Source: Nitrospirota bacterium (GTDB lineage Bacteria > Nitrospirota > UBA9217). From it: a DNA stretch of 64,000 nt. This document shows, piece by piece, positions 6,818-63,890 of the stretch (position 1 is its first letter; every line of letters starts with the position of its first letter). The stretch is from positions 192,001 to 256,000 of the forward strand of contig CAVUCU010000004.1 of assembly GCA_963740085.1 (NCBI GenBank), read 5' to 3'. The notes under the pieces are model-generated. The model did not search any database, was not told where the DNA came from, and worked only from the letters and a program-made list of their open reading frames with translations. Position numbers and translations under genes: made by a program.

Positions 6818-6846
6818 TTGACTTCCACCACTCACCTTGTTAATAT
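6818..6846 (+). promoter_or_regulatory. sigma70 promoter of the T2SS-like operon
   Basis: TTGACT-17 nt-TAATAT with TG at the extended -10 position. Confidence 0.6.
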
Positions 6847-6854
6847 ACGCATTA

Positions 6855-7781
6855 ATGTTAGGAGTTTTTGCGAGAAAGCCCCGGCTGGGGATCGAGATAA
6901 CTGCCACGGCGGTGAGGGTTGCGGTGTTATCGGGTTTCGGTGCGAACCTTTCCGTATTGTTTACGAAGACGGTTGATGTCCCTGACGGGGTGGTGAGCGA
7001 GGCTTACGCATCACTGAACGTTGTCGACCGGTCACGTTTGAGCGCCGTGCTGCAGGAGGGACTGAACGGTGTGCCGGCAGGCATCCGCCGGGCCGGCTTG
7101 AGCCTTCCTGACAGTGTGTTCCGCGTACAGATGATCGAATTCGATGAGCTTCCGGGAAAGGACGAGGACCGGCAACGGCTGATCCACTGGCGGCTCGAGA
7201 AGGGGGCCGCCTTTGATATTGCCGATACGGTCCTCCGGTATCAGGTACGCGGACGGCAGGACAACGGGTTCACCGTACTGTCCTGTGTTGCCAAGCAGTC
7301 CGTGATCGCGCAGTATGAGACGCTCTTTACCGAACTGGGACTTGAGCCATGGGCCATTGGTCCTTCGTCATTTTATACCTTCAGCTTTTATTCTTCGTAT
7401 CTCGCGAAAAAATCCGCAGTCTCGGCACTGACTCACCTTTCCAAGGATTCCTTTGCTACGATCATTATGGAACATGGCGGGGTGAGGTTTTACCGTTACA
7501 AGGACGTGAAGCGGACCAGCACGGAGGATATCCGCGATAAACTCATGCGGGAGATCGACGATTCGCTCCATTTCTATGCCCATATGGACCGCTTGCAGCA
7601 GTCCGAGGTCAAGGACCTCTATCTCACCGGTGAGTCCGATGTGTCCGCTGATCTGGTCGGAGCTCTCAGGACCGTGATGTCGCTCAACGTGGAGGTGCTT
7701 TCGCCCGCAGATTCCGCCCTGCCCGGTGTAAACATCGGACCGGAGATGACCGCAGCGTTGGGCGCCGGGAGCGCTCCATGA
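6855..7781 (+). CDS. PilM/GspL-like actin-fold assembly protein
   Basis: LGIEIT start motif, LSLPD, LYLTGE; first gene of an M-N-O-P-secretin run. Confidence 0.8.
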   Translation: MLGVFARKPRLGIEITATAVRVAVLSGFGANLSVLFTKTVDVPDGVVSEAYASLNVVDRSRLSAVLQEGLNGVPAGIRRAGLSLPDSVFRVQMIEFDELPGKDEDRQRLIHWRLEKGAAFDIADTVLRYQVRGRQDNGFTVLSCVAKQSVIAQYETLFTELGLEPWAIGPSSFYTFSFYSSYLAKKSAVSALTHLSKDSFATIIMEHGGVRFYRYKDVKRTSTEDIRDKLMREIDDSLHFYAHMDRLQQSEVKDLYLTGESDVSADLVGALRTVMSLNVEVLSPADSALPGVNIGPEMTAALGAGSAP

Positions 7782-8323
7782 TCACGATCAACTTTGCGAG
7801 CAGGAATTACCGGCTTATCGAGCGGATCCGTTTCGGGCTGACCGTGGGGAGCATCCTCCTGATCGCGATAACGGTTGGAATGCTCTGGCTCTGCCTCTCC
7901 CTTCGCGCGAACATTTCTTCCATGGATAGAAAACTGGAGGAGCTTAAGGCGGCGGACGAACGGTTGCGGCCCGCGCTATTGGAGCGCGAACGGCTCGTAA
8001 AGGACCTGTCCGCCATGTCCGGCCTCATGGACGCGAGAAAAATTTCATGGACACGACTCCTGACGAGCGTTGAGGCTTCCGTGCCGGTGGGTGTTGCGCT
8101 CAAGCACGTGGAATTCGAGCCCAAGGACTCCACCCTGACACTGAACGGCAAGGCGCGGTCCCCTGAGTCGCTGCGCAATCTGGTTGTGGCGATGGAAAAG
8201 TCCTCGTCGTTCAAAGATCCATTTCTCAAACACCAGTCTCTGGAAAAGGGGAATATCTCATTCAATGTGGTTGCCGTCTATCGGGAAGACAGAAGTCGCG
8301 CCGTGGCTCAGGGAAAACGGTAA
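7778..8323 (+). CDS. PilN-like protein
   Basis: INFA start, TM, coiled coil, SWTRLL..VE..VP.GV PilN pattern; ATGA overlap. Confidence 0.8.
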   Translation: MITINFASRNYRLIERIRFGLTVGSILLIAITVGMLWLCLSLRANISSMDRKLEELKAADERLRPALLERERLVKDLSAMSGLMDARKISWTRLLTSVEASVPVGVALKHVEFEPKDSTLTLNGKARSPESLRNLVVAMEKSSSFKDPFLKHQSLEKGNISFNVVAVYREDRSRAVAQGKR

Positions 8324-8810
8324 GCAGCTAAGGACGTATGCGGTCGTATTCGCTGTCCTTGCCTGCATCAACCTGGCGCTGTATTTTTTTCTCATTGCTC
8401 CTTCTTCAGCCCGGCTGAAGGCAGGGGAGGGAAAGTTTGCCGAACTCAGGATGCGGCATGCCTCCGCCGTGTTGTTCAATGATCAGAAACCGCTGTTTGC
8501 CGATCTCCTGAACGGGATACCGGCGCAAAAAGACATGCCTCTGCTCGTAAAGGAACTTGAGCAGAAGGCGAAGAGACTGAACCTGGCCGTGGCCGCGGTC
8601 AATTACGACATCCCGCGGCGTGAGAGCGGGGAACTCGCCATGCTGTCATTTTCATTTCCCGTTGAGGGCAGGTATCCTGACATCAAACGATTCATCTACG
8701 AGGTGGAGACTTCCGGCCGGCTCATCGGGATACAGGACGTGGACCTGGCGTCGGACAAGGGAAGGATAAAGCTGCAGATGAAACTGATGACGTATGTGAG
8801 AGGGAACTAA
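8265..8810 (+). CDS. PilO/GspM-like protein (start uncertain)
   Basis: TM then FPVEGRYPDIKRFIYEVE PilO-like motif. Confidence 0.75.
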   Translation: MWLPSIGKTEVAPWLRENGKQLRTYAVVFAVLACINLALYFFLIAPSSARLKAGEGKFAELRMRHASAVLFNDQKPLFADLLNGIPAQKDMPLLVKELEQKAKRLNLAVAAVNYDIPRRESGELAMLSFSFPVEGRYPDIKRFIYEVETSGRLIGIQDVDLASDKGRIKLQMKLMTYVRGN

Positions 8811-8820: not shown

Positions 8821-9453
8821 ATGAAGCTCACAAAGGCTCAGCAACAGATAGTCCTTGCCGCGCTGATTGCGCTGCTCGTGCTCATCAACGGATACTCTTA
8901 TCTGGCCGGACAGAAGCCGAAGACCGTGCCGCTCACGTACACGCGCGGGGCTACGGCCGTCTCCCCGGTCCGGCAGGGGACGTCTTCCCGGGTGGCAGGC
9001 GCGGACCCCTTGAACATCTTTCTGGAGCGGCGAAGGGAAAAATTCCCGGGTGTGGTCCGCTATATTTTCCAGATGCAGAACCCGGCCCCCAAACCGGTGG
9101 CGTCTCATAAAAAGGCGCCTCCGGTGCACGTGAAAACGCCGGAAGAGCTTGCCGCCGAGGCGGCCCAGGCGGCCGCACAGGCGGCCAGGGCTGCTGCTGA
9201 GGCGGCGGCCCAGGCGGCCCGGGCGGACCTGATGAAGTTCCAGTTGGTCGGATATCTGACCGAGAAGGAGAGCACGCTCTTCCTGTCCAAGGAGGGAGAG
9301 CTGTTCATCGTGAAGAAAGGGAGCAAGCTTCTCAAGAGCTATAAGGTCAAGGAGACGGGCAAGAATTTCGTGATCCTGCTCGACACCATTACCGGCGTCG
9401 AGGTGCAGTTGGAACTTCCGGGCGGAGAGATGCAGCCTCAACAGAACCGCTGA
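8821..9453 (+). CDS. PilP/GspC-like accessory protein
   Basis: N-terminal TM, Ala-rich linker, C-terminal beta domain (GYL...LFL...ELFIVKKG); position before the secretin. Confidence 0.6.
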   Translation: MKLTKAQQQIVLAALIALLVLINGYSYLAGQKPKTVPLTYTRGATAVSPVRQGTSSRVAGADPLNIFLERRREKFPGVVRYIFQMQNPAPKPVASHKKAPPVHVKTPEELAAEAAQAAAQAARAAAEAAAQAARADLMKFQLVGYLTEKESTLFLSKEGELFIVKKGSKLLKSYKVKETGKNFVILLDTITGVEVQLELPGGEMQPQQNR

Positions 9454-9582
9454 CACCGAAGAGGGATCATTCATTTCCTGTCTTCCCCGTGCATTTTTGC
9501 TCTCCGTTTTTCCCTACTAATAGGTGATGTGTCGGTTACGGTGTATCCCGTTCGGGGCAACCCGTGTGAGGTGAGGAGGAGG

Positions 9583-11943
9583 ATGATGAAAAGGATTGTA
9601 CTGTTGCTTATGACCGTTTTTCTGTCAGCGACGTTCATGAGTTGCGCCGGCTCTCAGGCGTTCCAGCGTGGCGAGCGTTATGCTCACAGCGACGAGTGGG
9701 ACCTCGCAGTAAAGGAATACCGGGAGGCCAACCATCGGAATCCACGAGACATCGAATACCGCTCAGCCCTGCTCAGGGCAGAGGAGACGGCCGCGAACCA
9801 TCACTACAAAAAGGCGCGCAGTTTCGTGAAGGAGCGAAAGCTTGACCAGGCGATAACCGAGCTCCAGCAGGCCATCTACCTGAACCCGACCAATGTCGCT
9901 ATTCAGAGCGCACTCAGGTCCGTCCTCGATATGAAACAGGCGGAAGAGCACTACCGCGCATCGCTTACCTTCACCGAGCTGGGGCGGCTTGGAGAAGCCG
10001 TGAATGAACTGAACCAGGCGGTGGAACTCGATCCTGATAACATGAAATACCATGATTCCCTCGAGAAGCTCCGGAAAGAGAAGACCGAGGTAGAGCCCGA
10101 AGAAGCTCTCACCCTTGCTTCGGAAAAACCCATTTCGCTGAACTTCAAGAACACGAACATTAAAGATGTCTTCGAGTTCCTGTCCAAGCTGTCTGGCATC
10201 AACATCCTGTTCGATGACGAAGTGAAGGCCCAGCCGGTGACGGTTTTCGTCAAGGACGTGTCGTTCCAGTATGCCCTGAACCTGCTGCTCTCGACGAACA
10301 AGCTCTTCATGAAGAAGGTCAGCGCTGACACTATCATTATCATCCCCAAGAACAAGGCAAAGTCCGACCAGTATGAGGACCTTATGGTCAGGACCTTCTA
10401 CATCAACAACGCAAAGGCGAAAGAGATCGTCAACCTGCTCCGGACCATGCTCGACATTAAAAAAGTGTATGTGAACGAGGTGCTGAATGCGCTTACGGTT
10501 CGCGATACCCCTGAAAAGCTGAAACTCGTGGAAAAGGTGATCGCCGCGAACGACCTCAAGGAGGCGGAGATCATTCTTGACGTCGAGATCCTTGAGATCT
10601 CACGGACCAATGCGCTGAAATACGGGTGGAACTTCACACCCGGCGGCCTTTCCGCCACCGCAGCGGTCCAGAGCACAGCGCCCACGACTGCCGGCAACAG
10701 CGGCGGCATAGCGCTGAGCGAGCTCAGGAACCTGACAAAGGATAACATCTTCGTAACGCTTCCCGGCCTGGTCGTGAACCTGATCAAACAGGATTCCGAT
10801 GCCCAGACCCTTGCGAACCCGCGGGTGCGCGTGTTAAATAATAAAAAAGCTACGTTCCATGTCGGTGAGAGGATACCGATACAGACCTCCATCGCGCAGA
10901 CATCAGCCGTGGTGGGGTATCTGCCGACGTCGACCTTCGATTACAAGGATGTGGGCATCAAACTCAACATCGAACCGACGGTCCATCTCAACAATACGGT
11001 TACGCTTAATTTGAAGCTGGAGATCAGCACGCTCGGAGACGCCTTGAATTTCGGCAATGGACAGGTACAGTACAAGTTCGGCACCCGGACAACAGAGACG
11101 ATCATCAATCTGAGGGACGGCGAGACCGTGATCATCGGGGGGCTCATCAAGGACGAGGAGCGAAAGAGCAGGTTTAAGATCCCGATCCTCGGAGACATTC
11201 CGCTCCTGGGCAAACTCTTCGCCTCGGCGGACGACGGTACGATCAAGACAGACATCCTCATGTCCATTACGCCGAACATCGTTCGCGGTATGGAACTTCC
11301 GGACAAGGATTCCCAGGCATTCTGGTCGGGAACAGAACGCGACTATGATACGAAACCGCTCTTCGTCAGTGATGGCAAGAGCTCCAAACGATCGGCCAAG
11401 TCGCTCGATAAAGCGGCGGTGCTCGATTCCCTGGCAAAGAGGGAAGCGGTTGCGCCACCGCCATCCGGCGAGACGGCCAAGCCGGTTTCAGCGCCATCCG
11501 CGACAACGGGCCAGCCTCTCACCACGTCCGCGGCCATTATAGAGATCAGGCCCACGGAGGCTTCGGTCAGCATCGGCCAGGAGACCCGGTTCGAATTGCT
11601 CGCAGGGAACATAAAAGATCTTTACGGGGCGATCGTAACGCTTACGTACGACCCCAAGGTCGTCGAGTTCAAGACGGCGAGCGAAGGTCCAATCCTTAAA
11701 AAAGACGGCCAGCAGACCTCGTTCCTGTTCTCAAACAACATAAAGGGAGGAACCGTTGACATCTACATGACCCGCATAGGTGATGTCGGCGGTGTTCAAG
11801 GCGCTGGAAGTCTGGGCACGCTTGTATTTCAGGCGAAAGCAGGAGGGACGACAGAACTGACGATGAAGGGCGTGAAATTGACGAATTTCAACCGGGAGCA
11901 GATCAAGACCGAGCTGAAAGGCGCAAAGGTGGTCGTGAAATAG
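9583..11943 (+). CDS. Lipoprotein secretin (GspD/PulQ-like): TPRs, N-domains, secretin core, C-terminal cohesin-like domain
   Basis: Lipobox-like FMSC; TPRs; LANPRVRV, DVGIKLNIEP and IPILGDIPLLGKLF; tail LYGAIVTLTYDPKVV...GSLGTLVFQAK. Confidence 0.9.
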   Translation: MMKRIVLLLMTVFLSATFMSCAGSQAFQRGERYAHSDEWDLAVKEYREANHRNPRDIEYRSALLRAEETAANHHYKKARSFVKERKLDQAITELQQAIYLNPTNVAIQSALRSVLDMKQAEEHYRASLTFTELGRLGEAVNELNQAVELDPDNMKYHDSLEKLRKEKTEVEPEEALTLASEKPISLNFKNTNIKDVFEFLSKLSGINILFDDEVKAQPVTVFVKDVSFQYALNLLLSTNKLFMKKVSADTIIIIPKNKAKSDQYEDLMVRTFYINNAKAKEIVNLLRTMLDIKKVYVNEVLNALTVRDTPEKLKLVEKVIAANDLKEAEIILDVEILEISRTNALKYGWNFTPGGLSATAAVQSTAPTTAGNSGGIALSELRNLTKDNIFVTLPGLVVNLIKQDSDAQTLANPRVRVLNNKKATFHVGERIPIQTSIAQTSAVVGYLPTSTFDYKDVGIKLNIEPTVHLNNTVTLNLKLEISTLGDALNFGNGQVQYKFGTRTTETIINLRDGETVIIGGLIKDEERKSRFKIPILGDIPLLGKLFASADDGTIKTDILMSITPNIVRGMELPDKDSQAFWSGTERDYDTKPLFVSDGKSSKRSAKSLDKAAVLDSLAKREAVAPPPSGETAKPVSAPSATTGQPLTTSAAIIEIRPTEASVSIGQETRFELLAGNIKDLYGAIVTLTYDPKVVEFKTASEGPILKKDGQQTSFLFSNNIKGGTVDIYMTRIGDVGGVQGAGSLGTLVFQAKAGGTTELTMKGVKLTNFNREQIKTELKGAKVVVK

Positions 11944-12058
11944 AGACAAGCATCGAGCACCGGATTACAAGCTCAGATACGTGTTCAATGACCCAGGTTC
12001 AAACAGCGGCCAAAACGCGCTCGAAGATTAATCATTGAGAGATTTGGGATTTCATGCC

Positions 12059-12542
12059 ATGCACAAGGGGATTACCCTTATTGAACTTCTCGTGGTCATC
12101 GTGATCGTCGGTATTCTCGCCTCGGCGGCAATGCCGTTTTCGCGTATGGCCATTAAGCGGACAAGAGAGATCGAGCTCAGACAAAATATCAGGGCCCTGC
12201 GCACGGCGATCGACGAATTCAAGAAGGACTGTGATACGAGGAAGCTTTCGGCGGTCGAAGGCTACTGCAAGCCCGAACAATTCAACTACCCGGAGTCCCT
12301 TGAGCAGTTGACGGAACCGCTGAGGTTGGCAGGCGCCGCTGACACGACCAAGAAATACCTTCGCAGGATACCCCGGGACCCCATGACCCCGCTCGAAGCA
12401 CCGGACAAACCGAACAACTGGGGGCTGCGCTCATACGGCGACGAGCCGGACTCCCGTGATTGGGGCGGCGGAAACGTGTATGACATCTATTCAAAGAGCG
12501 ATAAGGTGTCCCTGGACGGGATCGACATACAATACATGGTGA
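12059..12542 (+). CDS. GspG-like pseudopilin (+1 frameshift near 12521; restored C-terminus LDG-STYNTW)
   Basis: G|ITLIELL prepilin site, YLRRIPRDP; the alternate frame matches the paralog's LDGTAYNTW end. Confidence 0.85.
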
Positions 12543-12558
12543 TTATGTGAGAAGAGAG

Positions 12559-13008
12559 ATGACGGACGACAGAGGGAAGATTGCTGCAGAGAAAGGTTCA
12601 GACCGATCGGGGGGATTCACGCTCATAGAGCTCATGATCGTGGTTGCGATCATGGGGGTCCTTCTTTCCATTGCCGCGCCGAACCTCAAGCAAGCCGTTG
12701 TAAGGGCGCGGGAGGCCGTTCTCAGGGAGGATCTGTTCCAGATCAGAGAGGCTATTGATCAGTATTATGCCGACAACGACAGGTACCCCGCAGCGCTCAG
12801 CGACCTTGTCAACGCGCAGGAAAAGGCCAAGAGCTATCTGCGCGCCATACCCAAAGACCCCTTTACGACCGCCGAGGACTGGATCACCGTCACGCTGGAG
12901 GGCAGCGGGGACAGCAGCGGGGACAGCAGCGGGGAGTCCGGCATATTTGACGTACACAGCGCCAGCCCGCTCGTCGCATTGGACGGCACTGCGTACAATA
13001 CCTGGTGA
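12559..13008 (+). CDS. GspG/OxpG-like pseudopilin
   Basis: G|FTLIELM prepilin site, AREAVLREDL...YP..L.DLV, YLRAIPKDP; short SGDS repeat. Confidence 0.88.
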   Translation: MTDDRGKIAAEKGSDRSGGFTLIELMIVVAIMGVLLSIAAPNLKQAVVRAREAVLREDLFQIREAIDQYYADNDRYPAALSDLVNAQEKAKSYLRAIPKDPFTTAEDWITVTLEGSGDSSGDSSGESGIFDVHSASPLVALDGTAYNTW

Positions 13009-13141: not shown

Positions 13142-13170
13142 CCTTCCGTCTCTCGGAAGGACTTTTTTTT
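13142..13170 (+). terminator. Rho-independent terminator
   Basis: CCTTCCG-TCTCT-CGGAAGG followed by a T run. Confidence 0.7.
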
Positions 13171-13237: not shown

Positions 13238-13873
13238 GTGAAAAAATTAAGAGATTCCTTTAAAAAATATTTTATCACCGGTCTGCTTGTGATCATCCCG
13301 ATCTGGGCGACGTACTATGTGCTGTCCGGCATGCTCAGGATCATTGACAACATGCTCGGTGACCTGCCGGAGTATCTTTTGGGCCTGAAGTTCCCGGGCC
13401 TCGGGATAATCACCCTGATCCTCTTCGTGCTTCTGGTCGGCATCCTCTCCGCGAACTATATCGGCAAAAATGTGGTCCTCTACGGTGAAACACTCATGCA
13501 GCGGGTCCCGCTCGTGCGGGGTGTCTATTCCACGATGAAAAAGATCATGGGTACTTTTTCCATGAAGCATAATTTTCACGGTGTCGCGCTTGTCGAGTAC
13601 CCGCGCAAGGGTTGCTACAGCGTGGGGTTCATGACCGGCGACATACAGGGGGAGTCACTGGGGCTGGCAGGCAGGTTTATCACGGTCTTTGTCCCCACCA
13701 CTCCGAACCCCACGGCGGGATTTCTCCTTATTCTTCCCGAGGCAGAGGTCAGACGCCTCGACATGACCGTAGAACAGGGCATGAAATTCATCGTATCTGT
13801 CGGGCTTGTATCAATGAGCGATATTCAGGCCGGTAAACTGAAACACTCGGAGATCGGAGAGTCTCGATCATGA
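13238..13873 (+). CDS. DUF502 family membrane protein
   Basis: FITGLLV.IP, RVPLVRGVY, VEYPRKG and VFVPTTPNPTAGF motifs. Confidence 0.9.
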   Translation: MKKLRDSFKKYFITGLLVIIPIWATYYVLSGMLRIIDNMLGDLPEYLLGLKFPGLGIITLILFVLLVGILSANYIGKNVVLYGETLMQRVPLVRGVYSTMKKIMGTFSMKHNFHGVALVEYPRKGCYSVGFMTGDIQGESLGLAGRFITVFVPTTPNPTAGFLLILPEAEVRRLDMTVEQGMKFIVSVGLVSMSDIQAGKLKHSEIGESRS

Positions 13874-15277
13874 AGCCAACAGTAACAGTGGTCATTCTTG
13901 CCGCGGGACTGGGCACGCGTATGAAGTCCGATCTGGCAAAGGCGCTCCATCCGCTGGCAGGCCGTCCGCTCGTGCAGTATGTCCTGGAGGCCGCCGCGGG
14001 CGTGGGACCGGAAAAGATCGTGCTCGTGCTCGGACATCAGGCAGACAAGGTGCGGAGCGTGGTAGGAGGATTGCGCCTGGAGATCGTGCTTCAAGCCGAG
14101 CAGCTCGGCACCGGCCACGCCGTTCAACAGGCCGGGGAGGCGATTTCCAGGGGGACCGGGCCGGTCCTCGTTCTCTGCGCCGATACGCCGCTGGTCACCA
14201 CGAAAACGCTGCAGGACCTCATCGAACTTCATCGGAAGTCCCGTGCAGCGATGACATTCATCACGACGACGCTGGCCGACCCCTTTGGATACGGCAGGGT
14301 GGTGCGCGGAAAAACGGGGGTCATGCGCGTAGTCGAAGAAAAAGACGCCACCGCACCGCAGAAGAAAATTCAGGAAGTGAACGCGGGTATCTACTGCTTT
14401 GACCGGAAGTTCCTTCTTTCTTCACTCACGCTCCTCGGCAAGAACAATGCTCAAAAAGAGTACTATCTTCCCGACATCGTAGAACTTGCGAGAAAGAAAA
14501 AACTGCGCGTTTCGGCGTTTCGCTGTGGAGATCCGAATGAGATCATGGGCGTGAATTCCCGGTTCGATCTGAGCCAGGCCGAAGCGATCGTGAGACGACG
14601 GATCAACCGCCAATGGATGCTCGAAGGCGTTACCATGCCTGATCCGGAAACGGTCTTCGTCGGGAACGAGGTCCGTCTGGGGCGGGATGTTGTTCTCTAC
14701 CCCAACACAAGGATCGAGGGAACGACCAGGATCGGCCCGGCCTGTGTCATCTATCCGGGGTCGAGGATCGTTGACAGCGTGATCGCGGACAACGTGACCG
14801 TAAAGGACAGCTCGGTGATCGAGGAGAGCGATATCGCCGCTGGCGCAGTCGTGGGACCCTTCGCGCATTTACGTCCCGGTTCTAAGATCGGAGCGCGGGC
14901 CAAGATCGGGAACTTCGTTGAAGTGAAGAAATCGACCATCGGCGATGGAAGCAAGGCGAGCCACCTCTCGTATATCGGGGATACGACCGTGGGCCGGGAC
15001 GTGAACATCGGAGCAGGCGTGATCATTTGCAATTATGATGGATACGTCTAAATATCCCACGGTGATCGGGGACAACGTGTTCGTGGGCAGCGATTCTCAA
15101 CTTGTGGCGCCGGTCAACATCGGGCGCGGCGCGCTTATCGCCGCCGGCTCGACGATCACCCGAGACGTGCCGGCTGACGCGCTTGCCATCAGCCGCGTCC
15201 CTCAGGACACCCGGGAAGGGTTTGCGAGCCGAAGAAGACGATTGAAACAAAAAAGCAAAACAATAATTGAAAATTGA
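13870..15277 (+). CDS. glmU: Bifunctional UDP-GlcNAc pyrophosphorylase/acetyltransferase (+1 frameshift near 15049)
   Basis: [11 protein letters not shown], hexapeptide repeats; NYDG continues as [15 protein letters not shown] in the +1 frame. Confidence 0.92.
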
Positions 15278-15360
15278 CGGATTGGAAATTGGAAAATGAA
15301 GGCATATAATTTATGGCTTTTCAATTTAAAATTTCGCAATTTGCAATTTTCAATTTGAAA
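15264..15360. repeat. Heptamer-periodic inverted repeat
   Basis: AAATTGA/AAATTGG units facing CAATTTA/CAATTTG/CAATTTT units. Confidence 0.65.
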
Positions 15361-15378
15361 TGGAGCGTGAGCGAACTT

Positions 15379-17209
15379 ATGTGCGGAATTATCGGATATA
15401 TCGGGAAAGAACCGGCAGTCCCCATCCTGATCGAGGGGCTCAAGAAACTTGAGTACCGGGGATACGACTCATCCGGTGTTGCCGTGCTTCAGGACGGGAA
15501 GATCGTGCTGCGCAGGGCGGTGGGCAAGCTGCAAAACCTGGAGACGCTGCTCAGGACGGAAACACTGAGCGGCAGCATCGGAGTTGGCCATGTCCGCTGG
15601 GCCACGCACGGGAGGCCGTCTGAAGAGAACGCGCATCCCCATCGCGCGGGCGGCACCGTGGTGGTCCACAACGGCATAATCGAGAACTACCTGGCGCTGA
15701 AGCAGAAGCTTTCTGCGCAGGGGTGTGTGTTTAAGTCAGAGACGGACACTGAAGTGATAGCCCATCTGATCGACAGCATCGTCCAAAAGGGGCTGTCCCT
15801 TGAAGACGCGGTGCGCGAGGCGGCCCGGCATCTGGAAGGCGCCTACGCGATCGCAGTGATCGATGAGCGAAATCCCGAGGTCGTGATCGGCGCGCGCAAG
15901 GGAAGCCCCCTTGTGGTAGGGCTCGGCCAGGGAGAATTCTTTCTCGCCTCCGATATCCCTGCGATCCTGCACCGAACCCGGGATGTGCTGTTCCTGAACG
16001 ACGATGAAATGGCGATCCTGTCCAATGAGGGAGTAAAGATCACCGATCTCAAGGGCGCGGAAATCCAGCGGGAGATCACCCGCGTGATGTGGAACCCGGT
16101 CATGGCAGAGAAGGGCGGTTACCGCCACTTCATGCTCAAGGAGATCTACGAACAGCCGCGCGCCATCATGGATACCATCCGGGGCAGATTTTCGCAGGAA
16201 ACGGGGACCATTCATCTCGAAGAGATCGGCCTTGCACACGAGCGGCTTCTCAGGGTAAAGAAAAATATTCATTGTCGCATGCGGCACGTCGTGGCATGCG
16301 GCGCTGGTTGGCAAGTACATGTTCGAGGAGCTCGCATCCATCCCGACCGAAGTCGATATCGCCTCCGAATTCCGCTACCGCAGCCCGCTGGTCGGCAAGG
16401 ATGACCTTTTCATCGCCATCACCCAGTCCGGCGAGACTGCCGATACGCTCGCGGCTATGCGCGAGGCAAAGAAGCGCGGCGCTACCGTCATTACAATCTG
16501 TAATGTCGTGGGCTCCACGGCGAGCCGCGAGGCTGATGGCGTGGTGTATACCCACGCGGGGCCCGAGATCGGGGTGGCTTCGACCAAGGCCTTTACCGCC
16601 CAGCTTGCGGCGCTCTACCTCTTCGGACTTTTTTTCGCATCGCTGCGAGGCAAACTGTCGGTTGATGAGATAAAACAGCGGCTCACCGATCTGGTGCACA
16701 TTCCCTCTCTGGTGGAACGCTGTCTTGAAGGGGATGCCGAGATCGAGGGGATCGCAAAACACTACTTCAAGTCCAGCGACTTTCTCTATCTCGGGCGGGG
16801 CCCCAACTTTCCCGTGGCGCTCGAGGGAGCGCTCAAACTGAAGGAGATCTCATACATCCACGCGGAAGGTTATCCCGCGGGTGAAATGAAGCACGGGCCG
16901 ATCGCCCTCATCGACGAGAACATGCCTGTTGTGGTGCTCGCGGGCAAGAACGGCGTATACGACAAGATCCTGTCGAATATTGAAGAGGTGAAGGCCAGGG
17001 GCGGGATCGTGATCGGGGTCATAACCGAGGGAGACAGGGAGATCATAAAGAAGATCAACCATTCGATACCAGTGCCGGCGACCAACCAGCTGCTCATGCC
17101 GATCCTCCTGACCATACCGCTTCAACTTCTGGCGTATCACGTCGCGGTGCTGCGCGGCGCGGATGTGGACCAGCCGAGGAACCTGGCAAAGAGCGTAACA
17201 GTGGAGTGA
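15379..17209 (+). CDS. glmS: Glutamine-fructose-6-phosphate transaminase (+1 frameshift in the A run near 16265)
   Basis: [22 protein letters not shown] (+1 frame), [11 protein letters not shown]. Confidence 0.93.
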
Positions 17210-17223
17210 CGGCGGACTGGAGT

Positions 17224-17336
17224 GATTGCAAAATGCAAAAGGTAAAATGCAAAGTGCAAAATGGGGAGGCTTGTTCCAATTCTGAATATAAAATTTCGAA
17301 TTTCAGTTTCCAATTTGACATTCGCATAATTTGACT
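17224..17336. repeat. Heptamer-periodic inverted repeat
   Basis: AAAATGC/AAAGTGC units facing AATTTCG/AATTTCA/AATTTGA units. Confidence 0.6.
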
Positions 17337-17340
17337 TACT

Positions 17341-19568
17341 ATGGATTATCTTGACAATTTGAACCCTCCTCAGCTCGAGGCGGTCCTGTATGGAGATGGG
17401 CCGCTGCTGATCCTTGCGGGCGCCGGGAGTGGAAAGACGCGGGTGATCACGTGCCGGATCGCACACCTGATCCGCGAGCGGGGCGTTGACGCCGGAAATA
17501 TCCTCGCGGTCACATTCACGAACAAGGCTGCCAACGAGATGAGGGGGCGGGTGGAGCGGATGCTTGATGTCCCGCTTAACCGGCTCTGGATCAGCACGTT
17601 CCATTCGGCCTGTGTCAGGATCCTGCGGCAGCACATTGACCGTCTGGGGTATAAGCGGTCGTTCGTGATCTACGACGAGACCGATCGTTCATCCTTGATC
17701 AGGGCCTGCATGGCCGATCTGCGGATCGACACCGAGCAGTACCAGCCGCGGGCGATCGGAGCCCGCATCAGCGCCCTCAAGAACAATCTGACCGATGCAG
17801 AGCAATTCGAAAAAGCGAGCGCTCATTTCGGGTTTGAGGAGGCCGTTTCACGGACGTACTCGCTGTATCAGGAGCAGCTCAGAGGATCAAACGGCCTTGA
17901 CTTCGACGACCTGCTCATGCTGAGCGTAAGGCTTTTTGAACAGCATCAGGATGTGCTCGGTTACTATCAGGGTCTGTTTCACCATATCCTGATCGATGAA
18001 TATCAGGATACGAACCATGCCCAGTACCGGCTTGTCCGGCTTTTAACCATGCGGCGAATAGAATCTCTGCGTCGTGGGGGACGACGACCAGAGCATTTAC
18101 AAGTTTCGCGGCGCCGATATCGCGAATATCCTGAATTTTGAAAAGGATTATCCTGCTGCAAAGGTCATCAAGCTCGAACAGAACTACCGCTCCACCGGAA
18201 ACATCCTTGGCGCGGCAGGCGCGGTGGTTGCGCGAAACCTCGGCAGAAAACCAAAGGAGCTCTGGACCCAAAAGCCCGGCGGCGACAAGATCCTCTGCTA
18301 CAAGGCCATCGACGAGAAGGACGAGGCCCGTTTCATCTGCCGGACCATCCAGCAGGAAGTGGACGAAGGCCGAAGCCTGCGCCAGATCGCGGTGCTCTAT
18401 CGCACGAACGCCCAGTCACGCGCTCTCGAAGACGCGCTGCGCAATTGGGGAACGCCGTACCGGATCTTCGGCGGCCTGCGGTTCTACGATCGCAAAGAGA
18501 TCAAGGACATCATCGCCTATTTGCGGGTGCTGCAGAATCCCGCGGACATTGTCAGCCTGCGAAGGATCATCAATGTCCCTGCGCGCGGCATCGGCGATAC
18601 CACGGTGGACAAACTGGAGCGCGCGGCAGCGGCAGCCGGGGTGTCATTGTATCAGGCCGCACGGGATGCGGATACCACCGATATCACTCCGGCGGCGAAG
18701 AAAAAGCTCCGGGCGTTCGTCGTCATGATGGACCGGATGCGAGATGATCTCGGGACGATGACGCTCACGGAGCTGGTCAGGAGGGTAATCCTCGAAGCCG
18801 GATATGGCGCGGCGCTCGATCAGGAGAAAACCATTGAGTCCCGCATCAGGCTTGAGAACCTGAACGAGCTCATGACTGCAACCGAGGACTTCCAGGAACA
18901 GAACCACGATGGATCGTTGCCGGCTTTTTTGGACCAGGTGGCGCTTATCACCGATCTGGAACAGCAGACCGCGGTTGATGGCAAGCGCGTAAACACCGAT
19001 ACAGTGACGCTCATGACCCTGCATAATGCCAAGGGTCTTGAGTTCGCACTGGTGTTCCTTGCCGGCATGGAAGAGGGGTTGTTCCCTCATTCCCGGTCAG
19101 CCGAGAGCGAGGAAGAGCTTGAAGAAGAACGCCGGCTCTGCTATGTCGGCATCACCCGGGCCAAGGAACGGCTGATCCTCACTCACGCCGTGGAGCGCAG
19201 GCTCTACGGTTATCCGCAGGCCAATCTCGTTTCGCGGTTTGTCCAGGAGATCCCGGAGCGAGGCAATGGACTTTGCGGGCATTGAACGATCAACACTCTC
19301 TGTATCGCGGGACCGCGCTCCATGGAACGCTGCTTTGTACGGCACTGCCCCGGTCGCACACGAGTTGATCCCCTCGTCTCCTCCGTCGCCGAAATCCGGT
19401 GTCGCCGGATCTTACTACAAAGGGGCGGTAGTGAAGCATGCCAAGTTCGGACTTGGCACGATACAGCGGTCCGAGGGAGAGGGAGACGACCTGAAGATAA
19501 GCGTGAGCTTTCCCGGGTATGGAGTAAAGACGCTGGCGGTGAAGTTCGCAAAATTGGAAGTAGTTTAA
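17341..19568 (+). CDS. pcrA: UvrD/PcrA DNA helicase (two +1 frameshifts near 18060 and 19256)
   Basis: AGAGSGKT, DEYQD, VGDDDQSIY, LEQNYRST, EERRLCYVGITRAK and C-terminal VKHAKFG.G Tudor-like domain across three frames. Confidence 0.9.
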
Positions 19569-28760: not shown

Positions 28761-28775
28761 CTGGAGCATACACCC

Positions 28776-55400: not shown

Positions 55401-57616
55401 CTCCTGTCGGCAACCCTGTGGACAGCATGTCGACCCTGAAGCTTCAGATATCGAGCTGGGCGGATGGAGCGATCACGTTGACCGGAAAGCTCGAGGACGG
55501 CGTAACGCCTCTTCAGAACGGCGACTACCAGCTGACGATCAGACGTGACGACAGCCGCCGGATGAGCATAGCTGCTGCGACGCTCCATGTGGGTGTTCCG
55601 GCGAGCAAGGTCAAACATGTTGCGACCGGCACCGGCGCTATCCAGGCAGCTATCGACAGCGCCGCTGACGGCGACCTGATCCTGATCGCGCCCGGACTCT
55701 ATCCGGAGAACATCATCATGTACAAGAACGTGAAGCTCCAGGGATACGGCGCGGCCTCCACGGTCATCAATGCAGGCTACTTTACACCGGACAAGCAGAC
55801 TGCCTGGCTCGCGCTGCTCAACAGCATCACGAGCGCTCAGTCCAGCACATTTTACATCATCCCCGGAGAACAACCGGACTTCTTCCTTGAGCAGGGCTCG
55901 GGCATCCTGGTGCTCGCGAGAGAGGGAGACTTTACCCAGCTTGATCCGGCCAGAATAGACGGATTGCAGTTCACTGGCGCAAATCTCGGCGGAGGCATCT
56001 TTGTCAACGGGTTCGGCCATTATCTGCAGATCACGAACAATAAAATTACCGCCAACCAGGGGACCGTGGGCGGAGGCATCCGGATCGGGAGTCCGTCGCT
56101 CGTCAGCCCGGGTGATCAGGCGGGCTCGAGTTTCTACGAAAGCTCACATAACGACAACATCACCATCAGCAACAACCTGATCATAACCAACGGGTCCAAC
56201 GGCCAGACGATCGCGAGCGGAGGCGGCATTGGTCTGTTCACCGGCTCCGACAATTATGTGGTGAGCGACAGCTGGATCTGCGGCAATTACTCGGCCCTTG
56301 CCGGAGCTGCAATAGGGCAGCAGGGATTGAGCGACCATGGCCTGATCAGGAACAATTCGATCATCTTCAACCAGTCCTTTGACGAAGGCGGCGGGATCTT
56401 CCTGTCCGGAGAAACGCCGATCGCCGGCCTCGTATCGAACGCCACGGCAACGCGAGTGCTTCCTTCGCCCCTCCTGCTGTCCGCGGGAGCGGGAAACGCC
56501 GTGATCACCGGCAACCTGATCCAGGGGAACAACGGCGGCAATATGGGCGGCGGCATCACGCTCTTCAACTACAACGGTCTGGATGTTCTTTCCAATCCGA
56601 CGGATACGGCGGCATGGTACAAGACGGAGATCTACAACAACCTGATCGTCAACAACATTTCCGGCGCATACGGGGCCGGGATCGCGCTCTTCAATGCGCT
56701 CGACACGACCATCGTGAACAACACGATCTCAAATAACGACTCCACGGCCACAAGCGAGTTTGCCTTCGGTATCGTTCCCAACCCGGCGGGACTGGTGGAT
56801 CTCTTCCTGCCGCCCACAGCCATCACAGGGCCGATGCCCGCTGGCATAGGTATCCAGCCCATCAGCGCCGATCTGGTCTCGGCGATGTCTGCCACGGTCG
56901 CTTCCGGTTACGGCGCATTCGGCGGCACCATAACACCGGTTCTGGTCAATAATATCGTCACCAACAATTTCTCCTACTTCTGGAACGGGTACGACCCGCA
57001 AAACAGCCTGTCTGCCCTCACACTCTCCGGTGTATGGGACATGGGGGTATTCGGCGTACCAACGGCAAAGCTGAACCCCCGGTTCTCGCTGCTCACGAAT
57101 GCAACGGGATATGATCCTTCCAATATCTCCGGGGACCCGAAGTTCATGACCAGCTACAGGAACAACCTCAATGCCGCACAGGGAGGGGCGACCCTGGGCA
57201 ATTTCGTGAGCATCATCTATACTCCCATGACGCTTGTCGGCAACTATCACATCCAGCGAGTTTCACCGGCACTGGATTCCGGCGATTCGACCGCTCTCAG
57301 CACCTGGTATCCTTACCTGAGCCTTGATATCGATACGGAACCACGGCCCATGGGCTATACCGTTCCTGCGAAGCCGGACATGGGCGCTGATGAATTGAAC
57401 TCGAAAGGGGACGTCAATTGCGACGGCGGTGTGACCGCGCAGGACGCCCTGCTGGCGCTCCGGTACGTCGTGGATAATACGCAAACGCTGGCATGCCCGC
57501 AGAATGCCGACGCGGCTCCGCTGACGCCCACGGGCAAGCCGATCGGAAACGGAGTAACGAATCTGAGCGATGTGCTCGCTATTCTGATGCGAGCAACGAA
57601 TCTAGTGATATGGTAG
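52478..57616 (+). CDS. Large secreted protein: SdrD-B/Cna-like and IPT domains, right-handed beta-helix, C-terminal dockerin-like module
   Basis: Signal peptide; FNDVNKNGVRDPGE; IQAAID.A..GD.I.IAPG.Y.EN; repeated GGGI/NN.I; GDVNCDGGVTAQDALLALR...GNGVTNLSDVLAIL. Confidence 0.85.
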   Translation: MSVRKPCSSPFGIFQRSVLIVGFLSGIFLGTNVQAFTVNVIDDTGSSVPNYEWTVQEDNTYDAVANVGIKGNPNTLSTSIHKSHAHVLAVGSTSTVDLPSTNRYYISAKAPGYTLNGDMVKVGQSSVTILLHKNPIPMAQVSVLVFEDNAPINGAPDIPGERSLPNFKIYIYDQAGQMSTDGFGNPIGTTYDLNTGDTITIGAGYVITTTAGDGTTGNALIPNLAPGKYGIRAVPNDGRPWVQTATIEGTPGIDTWVMAGEPPYNTEAGFFGVHAFIGFVLPTSYYQGIGDSTTNQFRALLPGETAGAITGQVMINHMNRPPLQAGLVPSIPVPEAYVGLTDAGNGNTQVYAAKCNPDSTFTIANVPPGTYTLTMWDFPLDMVMDFRTVVIPPTGGTADLGQIPVVAWFGRYEGSIFNDVNKNGVRDPGEAAIPNQLVDIRFRDGSIYWANTTDSSGEFLNSEVFPFFKYIIAESDYTRFKPTGATVYVDKGGPMSSPWPNPLYPLLETRTDTGPFPFLLEGMMLYNGSNSKIDWGRVPYAPGENGGIVGVAYLATTRAQADPRLSVAEPWEPGIPDVTINLYKVTGYDSNGKPITQGPINTYQTDSWDKNLPTGCKSAMQAAGLSLNPLGIPMDTYIDCAETIPFWNQTKPAVFDGGYAFSTDAQGNQLPAGEYVVEMIIPPGYILEKEEDVNAIVSGDTYTPSVPQPALLPAECVGADHLVPAFHSSDSGPNGIPQGSPIDVSSPVFPFVGQIRPLCDKKLVRLADGQNAAADFHIWTRVPPAGRIVGLVTDDLTPEFRRGSPRLNDVIGIPFLPISFQDYTGHEVARTYSDEWGQYNVLVPSTYSVNVPLPTGVSPNIVQIFVNHRGFDPSHPDPYFNPGYPVVEVHMDVWPGKTTYADTPLIPIRPNFSALDCDLPDKTPIVFEVNGPAGGPWVETTPGTITITSVGKQLLSDTSTRDYGFGSSAGNVFATPVGNPVDSMSTLKLQISSWADGAITLTGKLEDGVTPLQNGDYQLTIRRDDSRRMSIAAATLHVGVPASKVKHVATGTGAIQAAIDSAADGDLILIAPGLYPENIIMYKNVKLQGYGAASTVINAGYFTPDKQTAWLALLNSITSAQSSTFYIIPGEQPDFFLEQGSGILVLAREGDFTQLDPARIDGLQFTGANLGGGIFVNGFGHYLQITNNKITANQGTVGGGIRIGSPSLVSPGDQAGSSFYESSHNDNITISNNLIITNGSNGQTIASGGGIGLFTGSDNYVVSDSWICGNYSALAGAAIGQQGLSDHGLIRNNSIIFNQSFDEGGGIFLSGETPIAGLVSNATATRVLPSPLLLSAGAGNAVITGNLIQGNNGGNMGGGITLFNYNGLDVLSNPTDTAAWYKTEIYNNLIVNNISGAYGAGIALFNALDTTIVNNTISNNDSTATSEFAFGIVPNPAGLVDLFLPPTAITGPMPAGIGIQPISADLVSAMSATVASGYGAFGGTITPVLVNNIVTNNFSYFWNGYDPQNSLSALTLSGVWDMGVFGVPTAKLNPRFSLLTNATGYDPSNISGDPKFMTSYRNNLNAAQGGATLGNFVSIIYTPMTLVGNYHIQRVSPALDSGDSTALSTWYPYLSLDIDTEPRPMGYTVPAKPDMGADELNSKGDVNCDGGVTAQDALLALRYVVDNTQTLACPQNADAAPLTPTGKPIGNGVTNLSDVLAILMRATNLVIW

Positions 57617-60507: not shown

Positions 60508-61749
60508 ATGATGAATAAGACAAACCTGAAGATAATCTGTATGACCTTCCTGCTTATCGCCGGCGTTGCTGTCATGGCGGATGTGTCGTCGGCAGCGACC
60601 TACACTCTCCGGGCCGATAGGGCGAATCTCACCATGCCCGATGGTACGGTAGTCCCTGTCTGGGGATTTGCCGATGACGTCGCAGGAGCCGGTACGGGTA
60701 CGGTAATGGTCCCGGGCCCCCAGTTGATCGTTCCCGCATTGGACACGACGCTGACGATCAATCTGACGAACAACCTGCCGGTGCCCATTTCTGTGGACAT
60801 CCCGGGTCAACGGTATCCGAACGGCGCGACCCCGACCTATGTAGATGACGGGAAAGGCAATCGGGTAATGTCCTTCACGAATCACATCGCCGCGAATGGA
60901 GGAACAGCGTCACTCACCTTCGCAAACCTCAGACCCGGCGTATTTCTGTATGAGAGCGGCACCAATCCTGCCATGGAGATACCCATGGGACTTTATGGGT
61001 CGCTGATAGTACGCCCGCCTACCGCGGGTCAGGCATACGAACTCAATCCTCCATACAATGTGGACTCAACCTTTGCCAACGAGGCGGTTATTCTGCTGAG
61101 CGAGATAGACCCTCGATTCAACGACTATGTCGATGTCAATGGCACGACAGTCGACGCCGCGAACAAGATCAACTATTCGATAAGCTATGCCCCGATGTAT
61201 TTTCTCATCAACGGGAAGGCTTATCCGCAGACCTCGGACATCTCGGTTCCTCATGGGCAGCGGACGCTCCTGCGCCTTTTGAACGCCAGCGGGCGCAACG
61301 TCATGCCCACGTTCCAGGGAGAGGTTCCCACGGTCATTGCCGAGGACGGCTATTTGCTTAATTACCCCAGGCGCGAATTTGCACCCTCCCTGACCGCGGG
61401 CAAGACACTGGACATTATTTCGGCGCCGAGCGCAACAGGGTATCATGCTTTCTATGATCGTCGTCTGGGCATGTCAAACGCAGGTGTTTATCCCGGCGGC
61501 ATGATCACCTTTCTCGGGGACTTGAACTGCAGCCCGTTAAAAGGAGACGTGAACGGAGACGGCAGAATATCACCTATCGACGCTTTGACTGTCCTCCGTG
61601 CATTTGTCGGGGGAACGACCAATACACTTCCTGCCGGCGCCGATGTCTCTCTCGATCCCGCTTCAGGACTTCCCTGCGGGAATGGGACGATCGATCTGGT
61701 CGACGTCCTTATGCTGCTTCAAAAGGCTACAGGGTTCAACCCTTATTGA
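60508..61749 (+). CDS. Two-domain cupredoxin protein C without copper ligands, with C-terminal dockerin-like module
   Basis: VPGPQLIV, LYESGT...MGLYG.LIVRP, LINGKAYP; GDVNGDGRISPIDALTVLR...GNGTIDLVDVLMLL. Confidence 0.85.
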   Translation: MMNKTNLKIICMTFLLIAGVAVMADVSSAATYTLRADRANLTMPDGTVVPVWGFADDVAGAGTGTVMVPGPQLIVPALDTTLTINLTNNLPVPISVDIPGQRYPNGATPTYVDDGKGNRVMSFTNHIAANGGTASLTFANLRPGVFLYESGTNPAMEIPMGLYGSLIVRPPTAGQAYELNPPYNVDSTFANEAVILLSEIDPRFNDYVDVNGTTVDAANKINYSISYAPMYFLINGKAYPQTSDISVPHGQRTLLRLLNASGRNVMPTFQGEVPTVIAEDGYLLNYPRREFAPSLTAGKTLDIISAPSATGYHAFYDRRLGMSNAGVYPGGMITFLGDLNCSPLKGDVNGDGRISPIDALTVLRAFVGGTTNTLPAGADVSLDPASGLPCGNGTIDLVDVLMLLQKATGFNPY

Positions 61750-62269: not shown

Positions 62270-63890
62270 TCGCAGTACCTTGAGCCGCAGATTGATCGTC
62301 GCGGTCGCATGCATGGCGGTCTTCTTCTCACCTGGGGCCAATGCATGGTGCGGGGAAATTGCTCAAGAGCTTCTTAAAGAAATAGAAAGCAATGGTCCAA
62401 TCCATGAGTATGCGGTCATTATCAAATTGAGGGGCGTCGTCGGCTACCAGTCGCTCAAGGCATCTGTCGAACAGATGGCTCGCCACGAGCGGGTAAAAAA
62501 AGTGGTCCAGGAAATCAAGGCTGCGACCGACAGATCGCAGCAGAATTTGCGGTCGCATCTCGTCAACCAGGAAACGCTTGGCAAGGTAAGGAACGTAAAG
62601 CACTTCTGGATAGTCAACGGAATAGCCGTAACAGCAACGCCGGAGGCCATAAAAGAACTGGCGTCGCGGGCTGATGTTGAGGAAATTGTGCCGGACAGGA
62701 TCATCACCCTCGGCGCACCGGCCGTTGCTTCCAGCGCGGCTCCTGCTGGATGGAACCTGGACAGGATCGGGGTCCATCCTCTCTGGAACGCGGGATACAC
62801 AGGGCAGGGCGTAGTGGTCGCCACCATGGATACGGGAGTTGATATCAATCAACCTGAACTTGCATCGAAATGGCGTGGAGGAGTGAACAGCTGGTTCGAT
62901 CCCAGCGGAGAACACGGGACCCCCGCTGATGTGAGCGGCCACGGGACCCAGACCATGGGCATCATATTGGCGGGGAATACAGTGGACCATCTCATCGGTG
63001 TTGCTCCTGATGCTAAATGGATTGCGGCCAAGATATTTAATGATGCAGGTGTATCTTTTTCCAGCATCACGCATCAGGCATTTCAGTGGGTCCTCGACCC
63101 TGACGGAGACCCGAATACGAACGACGCTCCCGATATTGTTAACTGCTCCTGGGACCTGAGCAGCAGCGGGACTGTCACCGTTGTGAACCTGGAGTTCCAG
63201 CCTGACGTTCAGGCACTTCAGGCAGCAGGCATTGCGGTCGTCTTTTCAGCGGGCAATGCCGGGCCGCTTTCAAATACTTCGGTCAGTCCGGCGAACTATC
63301 CGGAATCGTTCTCGGTTGGAATGACGGACAGTACGGACATGATAGACCCGCGGAGCAGCAGAGGGCCGTCGGCATTCGACGGAACATCTCTCTATCCGAC
63401 GGTGGTTGCCCCCGGGGCCGGTGTTACGACGACTGACCTCTGGTTCGGCTCAGCGGACCTGAGCACCGTAACGGTGAACGGGTCATCATTTTCCGCTCCC
63501 CACGTTGCGGGCGCAATGGCGCTGCTGCTGTCAAGCAACCCGACCCTGACTGCCGGGCAGATGGAGGACGCGATAAAGCCGACTGCCTGGGACCTCGGAA
63601 CTACGGGGCCTGACAATGATTATGGGTACGGATTTCTGGATGTAGAACGGGCGGCAAGACAATTGAATATTCTGCAGCCGGGCTCAGTCGGTGATGTGGA
63701 CGGCAACGGAGCGCTGGATCTGAATGACGTTTTAATTGATTTAAGGGCGGCGGTCGGGTTTCCGACGAGCACTGTTGAAATGGACAGGATCAAAGCCAGA
63801 GGTGATGTATATCCTCCCGGCGCGCCGGATAATATGATCACGCCGGCGGACGCGCTGACGCTTCTCCGCATGTACGTGGGGGCACACTAA
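62235..63890 (+). CDS. S8 subtilase with propeptide and C-terminal dockerin-like module (start uncertain)
   Basis: MDTG, HGTQTMG, AGN, GSSFSAPHVAG; GDVDGNGALDLNDVLIDLR...GDVYP...DNMITPADALTLLR. Confidence 0.9.
   Translation: MRSASRISLFSNRSTLSRRLIVAVACMAVFFSPGANAWCGEIAQELLKEIESNGPIHEYAVIIKLRGVVGYQSLKASVEQMARHERVKKVVQEIKAATDRSQQNLRSHLVNQETLGKVRNVKHFWIVNGIAVTATPEAIKELASRADVEEIVPDRIITLGAPAVASSAAPAGWNLDRIGVHPLWNAGYTGQGVVVATMDTGVDINQPELASKWRGGVNSWFDPSGEHGTPADVSGHGTQTMGIILAGNTVDHLIGVAPDAKWIAAKIFNDAGVSFSSITHQAFQWVLDPDGDPNTNDAPDIVNCSWDLSSSGTVTVVNLEFQPDVQALQAAGIAVVFSAGNAGPLSNTSVSPANYPESFSVGMTDSTDMIDPRSSRGPSAFDGTSLYPTVVAPGAGVTTTDLWFGSADLSTVTVNGSSFSAPHVAGAMALLLSSNPTLTAGQMEDAIKPTAWDLGTTGPDNDYGYGFLDVERAARQLNILQPGSVGDVDGNGALDLNDVLIDLRAAVGFPTSTVEMDRIKARGDVYPPGAPDNMITPADALTLLRMYVGAH

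Follow-up and report, generated by a model that had tools for sequence, protein, structure and literature searches.

The window, a stretch of 64,000 nucleotides from a Nitrospirota bacterium (assembly GCA_963740085.1, contig CAVUCU010000004.1, positions 192,001 to 256,000), was found to encode a secretin that ends in a cohesin domain. Judged by its homologues and gene neighbourhood, it is PulQ, which serves as secretin in an atypical type II secretion machine of the Geobacter 'Pul' type, the name PulQ being given by the gene set and not by comparison with a named PulQ sequence. The cohesin is a standing, single-copy part of the Pul secretin across Nitrospirota and Geobacteraceae. Three secreted proteins with dockerin-like ends are encoded in the same window, about 40 kb away (11943 to 52478) as the original prediction had said, and that prediction had proposed that the secretin ring recruits such proteins for secretion or retains them on the cell surface. 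We consider it likely that the working ligand of this cohesin is not one of the window's dockerins. As a whole we favour, at a little better than an even chance, a reading in which the cohesin would serve in the periplasm to grip a protein element belonging to the machine, and the dockerins would belong to a separate anchoring device.

The secretin ends in a cohesin domain

The secretin open reading frame (9529..11943, on the + strand, like every Pul operon feature and dockerin module described below) encodes 804 amino acids (aa) if read from a GTG; the likely start is an ATG at 9583/9586, downstream of AGGAGG. Analysis of the reading frame, Pfam matches and homology revealed, in order, a lipoprotein signal peptide, tetratricopeptide repeats (TPR), STN/N0 and N3 domains, the barrel, a post-barrel segment, a linker and the cohesin. 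The signal peptide (9583..9645, lipobox Cys codon at 9643-9645) was read from the sequence and the protein is presumably lipidated. The TPR region (9664..10053; Pfam TPR_11 51.5 bits, TPR_2 42.8 bits) is possibly a fused pilotin. The barrel (10783..11286, residues 419-586; PF00263, 145.7 bits) is followed by a segment at the S-domain position (11287..11445) with an FWSG motif that was invariant in the column conservation of 108 homologues. This motif lies where the S-domain helix that binds the pilotin would be, and a further conserved stretch, from its sequence pattern probably an amphipathic helix (11407..11445), precedes the linker. The linker itself (11446..11535) is variable, comprises 30 aa of which 73% are Pro, Thr, Ala or Ser, and is much longer in Geobacteraceae.

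The 135 aa encoded by 11536..11940 matched Pfam Cohesin (PF00963) with 31.8 bits when searched alone (E 1.9e-7) and with 26.2 bits within the whole protein, the cut-off being 24.1. An AlphaFold2 model of the domain, made from a 61-row alignment, was nearly all beta and had a predicted local distance difference test score (pLDDT) of 97.3. All of the Foldseek matches listed were cohesins or cohesin-containing entries, the best being 2xdh (E 2.8e-12, 16% identity). The C-terminal domain is a cohesin, as originally predicted, and both sequence motifs quoted for it (at 11620-11664 and 11806-11838) and the Pro/Thr/Ala linker before it were found in place. The fold is shared with 2xdh, the non-cellulosomal cohesin of Archaeoglobus fulgidus (template modelling score, TM, 0.78), and with type I and type II cellulosomal cohesins (TM up to 0.86 to type I); unlike these, to which it is 13-18% identical, the secretin domain is fused to an outer-membrane pore, is present in a single copy per chain and is probably periplasmic. 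A cellulosome-type scaffoldin carries multiple cohesins, is extracellular and binds glycoside hydrolases, whereas here there was one cohesin per chain at a location that is probably periplasmic, and the dockerins of the window are borne by a beta-helix protein, a cupredoxin and a subtilase. Separately, four or five tandem domains with about 30% identity to the secretin cohesin were seen in the metagenome proteins P0121, P0122, P0125, P0126 and P0128.

The homologue search gave 208 matches among 864 candidates. Among the matches listed (120 of 208), the labels were general secretion pathway protein D or cohesin domain-containing protein, and where a source was named it was mostly Nitrospirota. 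The secretin scored below the NCBIfam cut-offs for both GspD (TIGR02517, 193.1 against 351.35) and PilQ (TIGR02515, 156.5 against 284.35); it shares N0, N3 and the secretin barrel with canonical GspD and PilQ, but adds an N-terminal lipobox and TPRs, and a folded domain past the S-domain position. It was 37-39% identical over about 600 aa to secretins of five Geobacteraceae genomes, each of which had one clear orthologue (374-405 bits, other secretins scoring at most 100), and all five orthologues end in a cohesin. According to PMC3543383, Geobacteraceae have in Pul a second type II system, one component of which is listed as 'secretin lipoprotein PulQ'. The Geobacteraceae system and that of the window have in common a lipoprotein secretin within a PilM/N/O/P-like operon followed by two pseudopilins; they differ in that the linker is shorter in the window, the cohesin face is far more conserved in its family and pulE and pulF lie outside the operon. 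The word 'cohesin' did not occur in those supplement tables of PMC3543383 that were searched, and our literature search found no paper on a secretin-cohesin fusion, although the full text of some earlier papers may mention such domains.

Position of the cohesin and its conserved face

Solved secretins have only their top rim in the outer membrane and the remainder in the periplasm, where a pilotin is bound by the C-terminal S-domain (PMC6532946). The cohesin comes about 83 residues beyond the S-domain position. Since the secretin C-terminus is periplasmic in the known structures, the cohesin is most likely a periplasmic domain, flexibly tethered outside the barrel. Such a position would make a surface scaffold unlikely and is compatible with recruitment. 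The proposal that the ring is a cell-surface scaffold for secreted dockerin enzymes is in keeping with the cohesin fold and with the multivalency of a 12- to 15-mer (secretin pentadecamers are reported in PMC6532946). We regard it as very improbable, because it conflicts with this topology, because lipoprotein cohesins (below) already supply an anchor and because it meets the same failures of co-occurrence as recruitment does.

The surface of the domain was strongly and unevenly conserved. Across 108 full-length homologues, which were gathered by similarity to the cohesin domain, 12 positions on strands 3, 5, 6 and 8 that probably point outward had a mean majority frequency of 0.98, compared to 0.72 at 16 positions of the other sheet, the positions being assigned from strand alternation and not from coordinates. 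Strands 3, 5, 6 and 8 form the canonical dockerin-binding face of cohesins. Identity to the query in strands 5 and 6 was 1.00 and 0.97 in 12 dockerin-positive genomes and 0.99 and 0.91 in 15 dockerin-negative genomes (G128 excluded). As the face is equally conserved with or without dockerins, it points to a conserved partner within the family of the window genome, and the dockerins do not explain it. The secretin cohesin is real, apparently an undescribed variant of a known machine, and this pattern suggests that its face is under strong selection for a partner.

That the domain is kept regardless of dockerins would also be in keeping with a partner that is not a protein. AMIN domains anchor PilQ via wall binding, and the cohesin could similarly hold peptidoglycan or another envelope ligand and so anchor the pore; it would be a tethered periplasmic beta-sandwich, and the Pfam search of the secretin showed neither AMIN nor any other domain that binds the wall. 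We nevertheless consider wall binding unlikely, as the conserved positions fall on what are presumably the protein-binding strands of cohesins and include one aromatic residue only, and as the structural neighbours, among the matches listed, were all cohesins.

In the reading that we favour, the ring of cohesins would grip a conserved protein element that accompanies the machine wherever it is found, and this grip may help the ring to assemble or may couple it to the PilMNOP and pseudopilin part. As ligand we would look first to the conserved helix (11407-11445), either of the same subunit or of a neighbour, a tentative choice that may well be wrong; the protein in the PilP position and the pseudopilins would be the next candidate ligands.

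Dockerins of the window and their distribution in Nitrospirota

The three dockerin-like modules lie at the exact C-termini of their proteins and can be aligned with one another, so that the original description of three secreted proteins with such ends was correct. The first (57401..57613) ends a 1712-aa secreted SdrD_B/beta-helix protein (52478-57616), the second (61537..61746) a cupredoxin protein (60508-61749) and the third (63684..63887) a subtilase (62235-63890). The profile search suggested with the original prediction gave a mixed outcome: the cohesin matched PF00963 as stated above, whereas only the cupredoxin tail exceeded the Dockerin_1 (PF00404) cut-off of 22.9 bits, at 37.2 bits, with the beta-helix protein just below it at 22.0 bits and the subtilase giving no match and being assigned by its alignment with the other two tails. 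In these tails the first calcium loop appears canonical and the second appears to hold an insertion.

Six dockerins of this type are carried by the genome. The cluster in the window runs on past its end (G000:C4:255958-275000) into genes for a Big_1 lipoprotein, a 452-aa cohesin protein, SCO1/SenC and a MofC-like cytochrome c, a split OmpB/MofA-like oxidase with the fourth dockerin at its end and a second lipoprotein. Like the ompB/mofA clusters described in PMC5566968, it thus continues into multicopper oxidase, MofC-like cytochrome c/periplasmic-binding and SCO1/SenC genes; it differs from them in that oxidases and a subtilase bear dockerins and cohesin genes flank them. The two further dockerin proteins are encoded elsewhere (L080:2531-7146 on C1 and L081:2867-5716 on C4), one of them a 1337-aa multicopper oxidase followed by an intact lipoprotein of the main type described below; the lipoprotein copy behind the other is interrupted by a stop codon. 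Scanning the genome for the loop motif gave no additional loops of dockerin type, with a pattern that also missed two known dockerins and the loop of the cohesin protein of about 450 aa. Three variant arrangements were seen, namely a lipoprotein with two cohesin-type domains (L110), an N-terminal dockerin (L223) and dockerins followed by a 117-aa tail (L111/L124).

Co-occurrence was analysed in a phylum sample of 251 genomes that were at least 85% complete, most of them incomplete assemblies. PF00404 was dropped as the main test of dockerin presence, having matched 2 of the 53 genomes of the family, compared to 22 of 53 with a purpose-built profile. The secretin cohesin was present in 95 of 251 genomes and in 44 of the 53 in the window genome's own family, and the 31-row dockerin profile matched 24 of 251, 22 of them in that family (one broken). 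Within the family 19 genomes had both, 3 the dockerin only, 25 the cohesin only and 6 neither (Fisher p 0.72, kin not being independent), and the three dockerin-only genomes belonged to one genus. Two of these, G107 (89% complete) and G146 (99%), had dockerin-lipoprotein pairs and only GspD- and PilQ-like secretins, while G122 had no secretin match and was uninformative.

The domain was found in 8 of 9, 27 of 46 and 7 of 22 genomes of other Nitrospirota families, in which Pfam dockerins were present in 0, 1 and 5 genomes respectively and the dockerin type of the window in none. At each of the five loci checked in those families, pseudopilins follow a Pul secretin, and one of the five is split. 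Three genomes of one or two contigs and 99-100% completeness (G083, G241 and G054) carried the domain but lacked any Pfam dockerin at E 0.05. In the sample of the class of G322, 5 of 200 genomes matched (one genome unscored); two of the matches were secretins and neither of those genomes had a Pfam dockerin. The distance between secretin and dockerin genes was not conserved, being about 20 kb in G005 and G197 and more than 100 kb, or on other contigs, elsewhere.

Cohesin proteins encoded beside the dockerins

The gene following the subtilase of the window encodes a lipoprotein (C4:255958-256809, its domain at C4:256390-256806), and the next, about 1 kb beyond the window, a 452-aa secreted protein with a Pfam cohesin match of 28.1 bits (C4:256837-258195). 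When 27 dockerin loci were inspected by eye, 21 had a lipoprotein gene immediately after the dockerin gene. Scanning named genomes yielded 80 dockerin loci, and 9 were excluded because the dockerin was not C-terminal or the locus lay at the end of a contig; under a strict lipobox rule a lipoprotein was found at 13 of 21 Nitrospirota loci and 26 of 50 others, compared to a background of 8 of 1049 long frames in the window genome.

The main type of lipoprotein (L080; C1:646531-646971) had no Pfam Cohesin match (0 of 15) and is, according to its structural model (pLDDT 92.9), of cohesin fold. The top 22 rows from VIA were cohesin entries (Z 9.8-7.3), with the first other fold at Z 6.5, and the first rank aligned with a root-mean-square deviation of 2.4 over 107 residues. 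A second type, which stands beside the subtilase of the window, also sits after dockerin genes in the window genome, in G179 and in three of its four matches in G058. No signal emerged when profiles of the secretin cohesin and of both lipoprotein types were compared with one another, and the ESM Atlas returned weak phage matches only (<0.9). Complex prediction of the subtilase dockerin with the adjacent lipoprotein domain gave 0.18 and 0.10 against a mark of 0.32, with no controls folded alongside, and was not used either way.

In the family of the Geomonas genome G251, which includes Geobacteraceae, a lipoprotein profile made from Nitrospirota only matched 42 of the 51 genomes with dockerins and none of the 18 without, and copy numbers were correlated (rho 0.86); unlike the comparison in the window family given further below, this one is not circular. 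Dockerin similarity tracked that of the adjacent lipoprotein (rho 0.58, p 0.011, 10 loci; 0.68 with 19 loci) and did not track that of the secretin cohesin of the same genome (rho -0.13). The cohesin protein of about 450 aa was present in 21 of 22 dockerin-positive and 4 of 31 dockerin-negative genomes of the window family. These dockerins and lipoprotein cohesins form a cassette that is widespread in Nitrospirota and Geobacteraceae, is mostly missed by Pfam and probably anchors oxidases, proteases and adhesins to the envelope. Since the dockerin enzymes mostly travel with cohesin proteins of their own, the partner of the pore is probably something else.

OlpA, OlpC and SdbA are single-cohesin anchoring proteins of cellulosome producers. 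The pairing of a dockerin cargo with an adjacent single-cohesin lipoprotein resembles their anchor-and-plug arrangement, and their PDB entries were among the fold matches; here, in contrast, the hosts are diderm, the anchor is a lipid, the cargo consists of oxidases, proteases and adhesins and the lipoprotein has no Pfam Cohesin match. Under the favoured reading the dockerin-tagged oxidases and the protease would be exported by Pul or by a canonical Gsp system and would most likely plug into the neighbouring cohesins, those of the small lipoprotein as membrane anchor and of the secreted protein of about 450 aa. A canonical Gsp operon, present in the window genome alongside two other PilMNOPQ-type loci, offers the exported cargo an alternative route.

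Proposed recruitment of dockerin-tagged cargo by the secretin

The alternative closest to the original prediction is that the periplasmic ring cohesins weakly catch folded dockerin cargo and feed it to the pore, after which it passes to the lipoprotein cohesin, so that the dockerin is a modular type II signal. The fold is real and the predicted periplasmic position is compatible with it. Large secreted proteins of very different kinds carry the dockerin right at the C-terminus, and between Nitrospirota and Geobacteraceae its identity is about 51%. In G. sulfurreducens OmpB, a multicopper oxidase, requires Pul for its secretion (PMC3543383, citing Mehta 2006), and oxidases of the OmpB family often end in this dockerin, which was carried by 43 of 120 homologues of an oxidase of the window genome. 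Set against this, 25 of the 44 cohesin-bearing genomes of the window family keep the domain without this dockerin and no association was seen there; G107 and G146 have the dockerin-lipoprotein pair with only GspD- or PilQ-like secretins; and in five dockerin-positive Geobacteraceae the face varied freely, the cohesin domain being 38% identical compared to 73% for the core. Multicopper oxidases of 1305 and 1303 aa in G271 and G263, which have MofC-like and SCO1-like neighbours, lacked a C-terminal dockerin, and the G271 secretin has the cohesin. Such neighbours are described for ompB in PMC5566968; if these oxidases are OmpB orthologues, Pul exports untagged cargo. We therefore judge recruitment to be rather unlikely: the lack of association in the window family, a face conserved regardless of dockerins, the dedicated cohesins beside the dockerins and the untagged OmpB-like oxidases all speak against it.

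The following observations count against our own reading. The co-occurrence suggested as a check on the original prediction, absent in the window family, was present in the family of G251, where 48 genomes had both domains, 3 the dockerin only, 9 the cohesin only and 9 neither (p 1e-4). Of the 12 cohesin-negative genomes in that family 10 were rechecked, and 8 of them had no Pul secretin match, including all three dockerin-positive ones (G258, G269 and G319), whose dockerins in turn argue against recruitment; if the 48 matches are Pul secretins, the counts become 48, 0, 9 and 2 (p 0.03). The dockerin-negative genomes G313 and G320 had the secretin without its cohesin, a loss that recruitment would predict, while five other dockerin-negative genomes that were checked keep an intact secretin cohesin. 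Some dockerins have no adjacent partner, which also favours recruitment: a dockerin protein of about 900 aa, followed by cytochromes with 4 and 19-24 CxxCH motifs, had no adjacent cohesin in four of five loci, and nine dockerin-positive genomes of the G251 family had no lipoprotein match. The second lipoprotein type showed no Pfam or hhalign link to cohesins and no useful ESM Atlas match, and by Foldseek the main type was a weaker match to cohesins (best 2xdh, E 1.3e-3). In the window family 20 of the 22 genomes with dockerins and 1 of the 31 without had a lipoprotein of either type, a comparison that is partly circular, and the co-inheritance of neighbouring genes inflates both the co-occurrence and the mirror tests. 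The helix at 11407-11445 is put forward as ligand on its conservation, and the assembly state of the genomes and the way in which face positions and homologues were chosen, given above, also belong here.

The secreted protein of about 900 aa mentioned in the preceding paragraph is a conserved one of about 900-930 aa, NHL-like by eye, that ends in the same dockerin in G264, G266, G271 and G275 (L219-L222).

An indirect form of recruitment is also conceivable, in which the secretin cohesin binds the C-terminal module, with a single calcium loop, of the protein of about 450 aa, or a dockerin-like family missed by the profiles, and the cohesin of this adaptor holds the cargo. The protein has an N-terminal cohesin and an EF-hand-like loop at its C-terminus; in the G251 family its gene usually follows the Pul secretin gene at a distance of about 6 kb (L206:1127-2482), and it was found in 8 of the 9 dockerin-positive genomes there that lacked a lipoprotein match. 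In the window family, however, it tracks the dockerins and was found in only 23 of the 44 genomes with a secretin cohesin, so it cannot explain the invariant face and was rejected as a universal partner in that family. The motif scan of the window genome, which missed this very loop and two known dockerins, offered no other dockerin-type loop as an adaptor. We consider this form about as improbable as wall binding. In six dockerin-negative genomes of the G251 family only the C-terminal part of the protein matched, in frames of 203-296 aa, which suggests that its cohesin was lost there.

Taking both routes together, we think it unlikely, if somewhat less so than either route alone, that Pul picks its cargo by a portable dockerin tag, directly or via the adaptor, and that a lipoprotein cohesin then displays this cargo on the surface. 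Were it so, the tag would amount to a defined and modular signal for type II secretion, and it would account for both the arrival and the retention on the cell surface of Geobacter of large oxidases and of the NHL-like proteins from multiheme cytochrome clusters. How type II secretion selects its cargo is a long-standing open question, and a cohesin on a secretin is for this reason worth testing even when success is improbable. The firmer result is that there are two separable modules, the secretin appendage and the cassette of dockerin and lipoprotein cohesin.

The Pul operon and other genes of the window

Upstream of the secretin lie genes for a PilM-like protein (PulM; 6837..7781; TIGR01175 E 5e-13, below the cut-off, and a weak PilM_2 match), a PilN-like protein (7778..8323; PF05137, 35.6 bits) and a PilO-like protein (8184..8810; PF04350, 38.5 bits), whose true start is probably later than the listed TTG. 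The gene in the PilP position (8821..9453) gave no Pfam or NCBIfam match, and its position is kept in G083, G005 and G251. Downstream are a first pseudopilin (PulG-like; 12035..12550; N_methyl, with a GspG-like match below the cut-off) and a second (OxpG/GspG-like; 12547..13008; N_methyl and T2SSG). Promoter, terminator and GC-content scans showed nothing above chance except a terminator-like hairpin at 13142-13160. The order pulM-N-O-P-Q followed by two pseudopilins was also seen in G251 and G271, whose operons begin with GspF- and GspE-like genes. The operon of the window, like its counterparts in G083 and G005, holds neither pulE nor pulF; elsewhere the window genome encodes several GspE-like and four GspF-like genes, none of them assigned to Pul.

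Several genes of the window were split or ended early (in 13870-19285, 45919-48205, 12035-12550 and 59016-60074), namely glmU, glmS, uvrD, a molybdoenzyme subunit, the tail of the first pseudopilin and one oxidase; these are probably assembly frameshifts. A helix-turn-helix nucleotidyltransferase gene followed by a HEPN gene (1918-2959) is, from its Pfam matches, a likely MNT-HEPN toxin-antitoxin pair. The region 27293-32074 encodes ExbD, TonB, a TonB-dependent receptor and what is probably a lipoprotein, the last without a Pfam match. A secreted-type protein (34151-35071), likewise without a Pfam match, has a Trp/Tyr-rich region and tandem Gln/Pro repeats.

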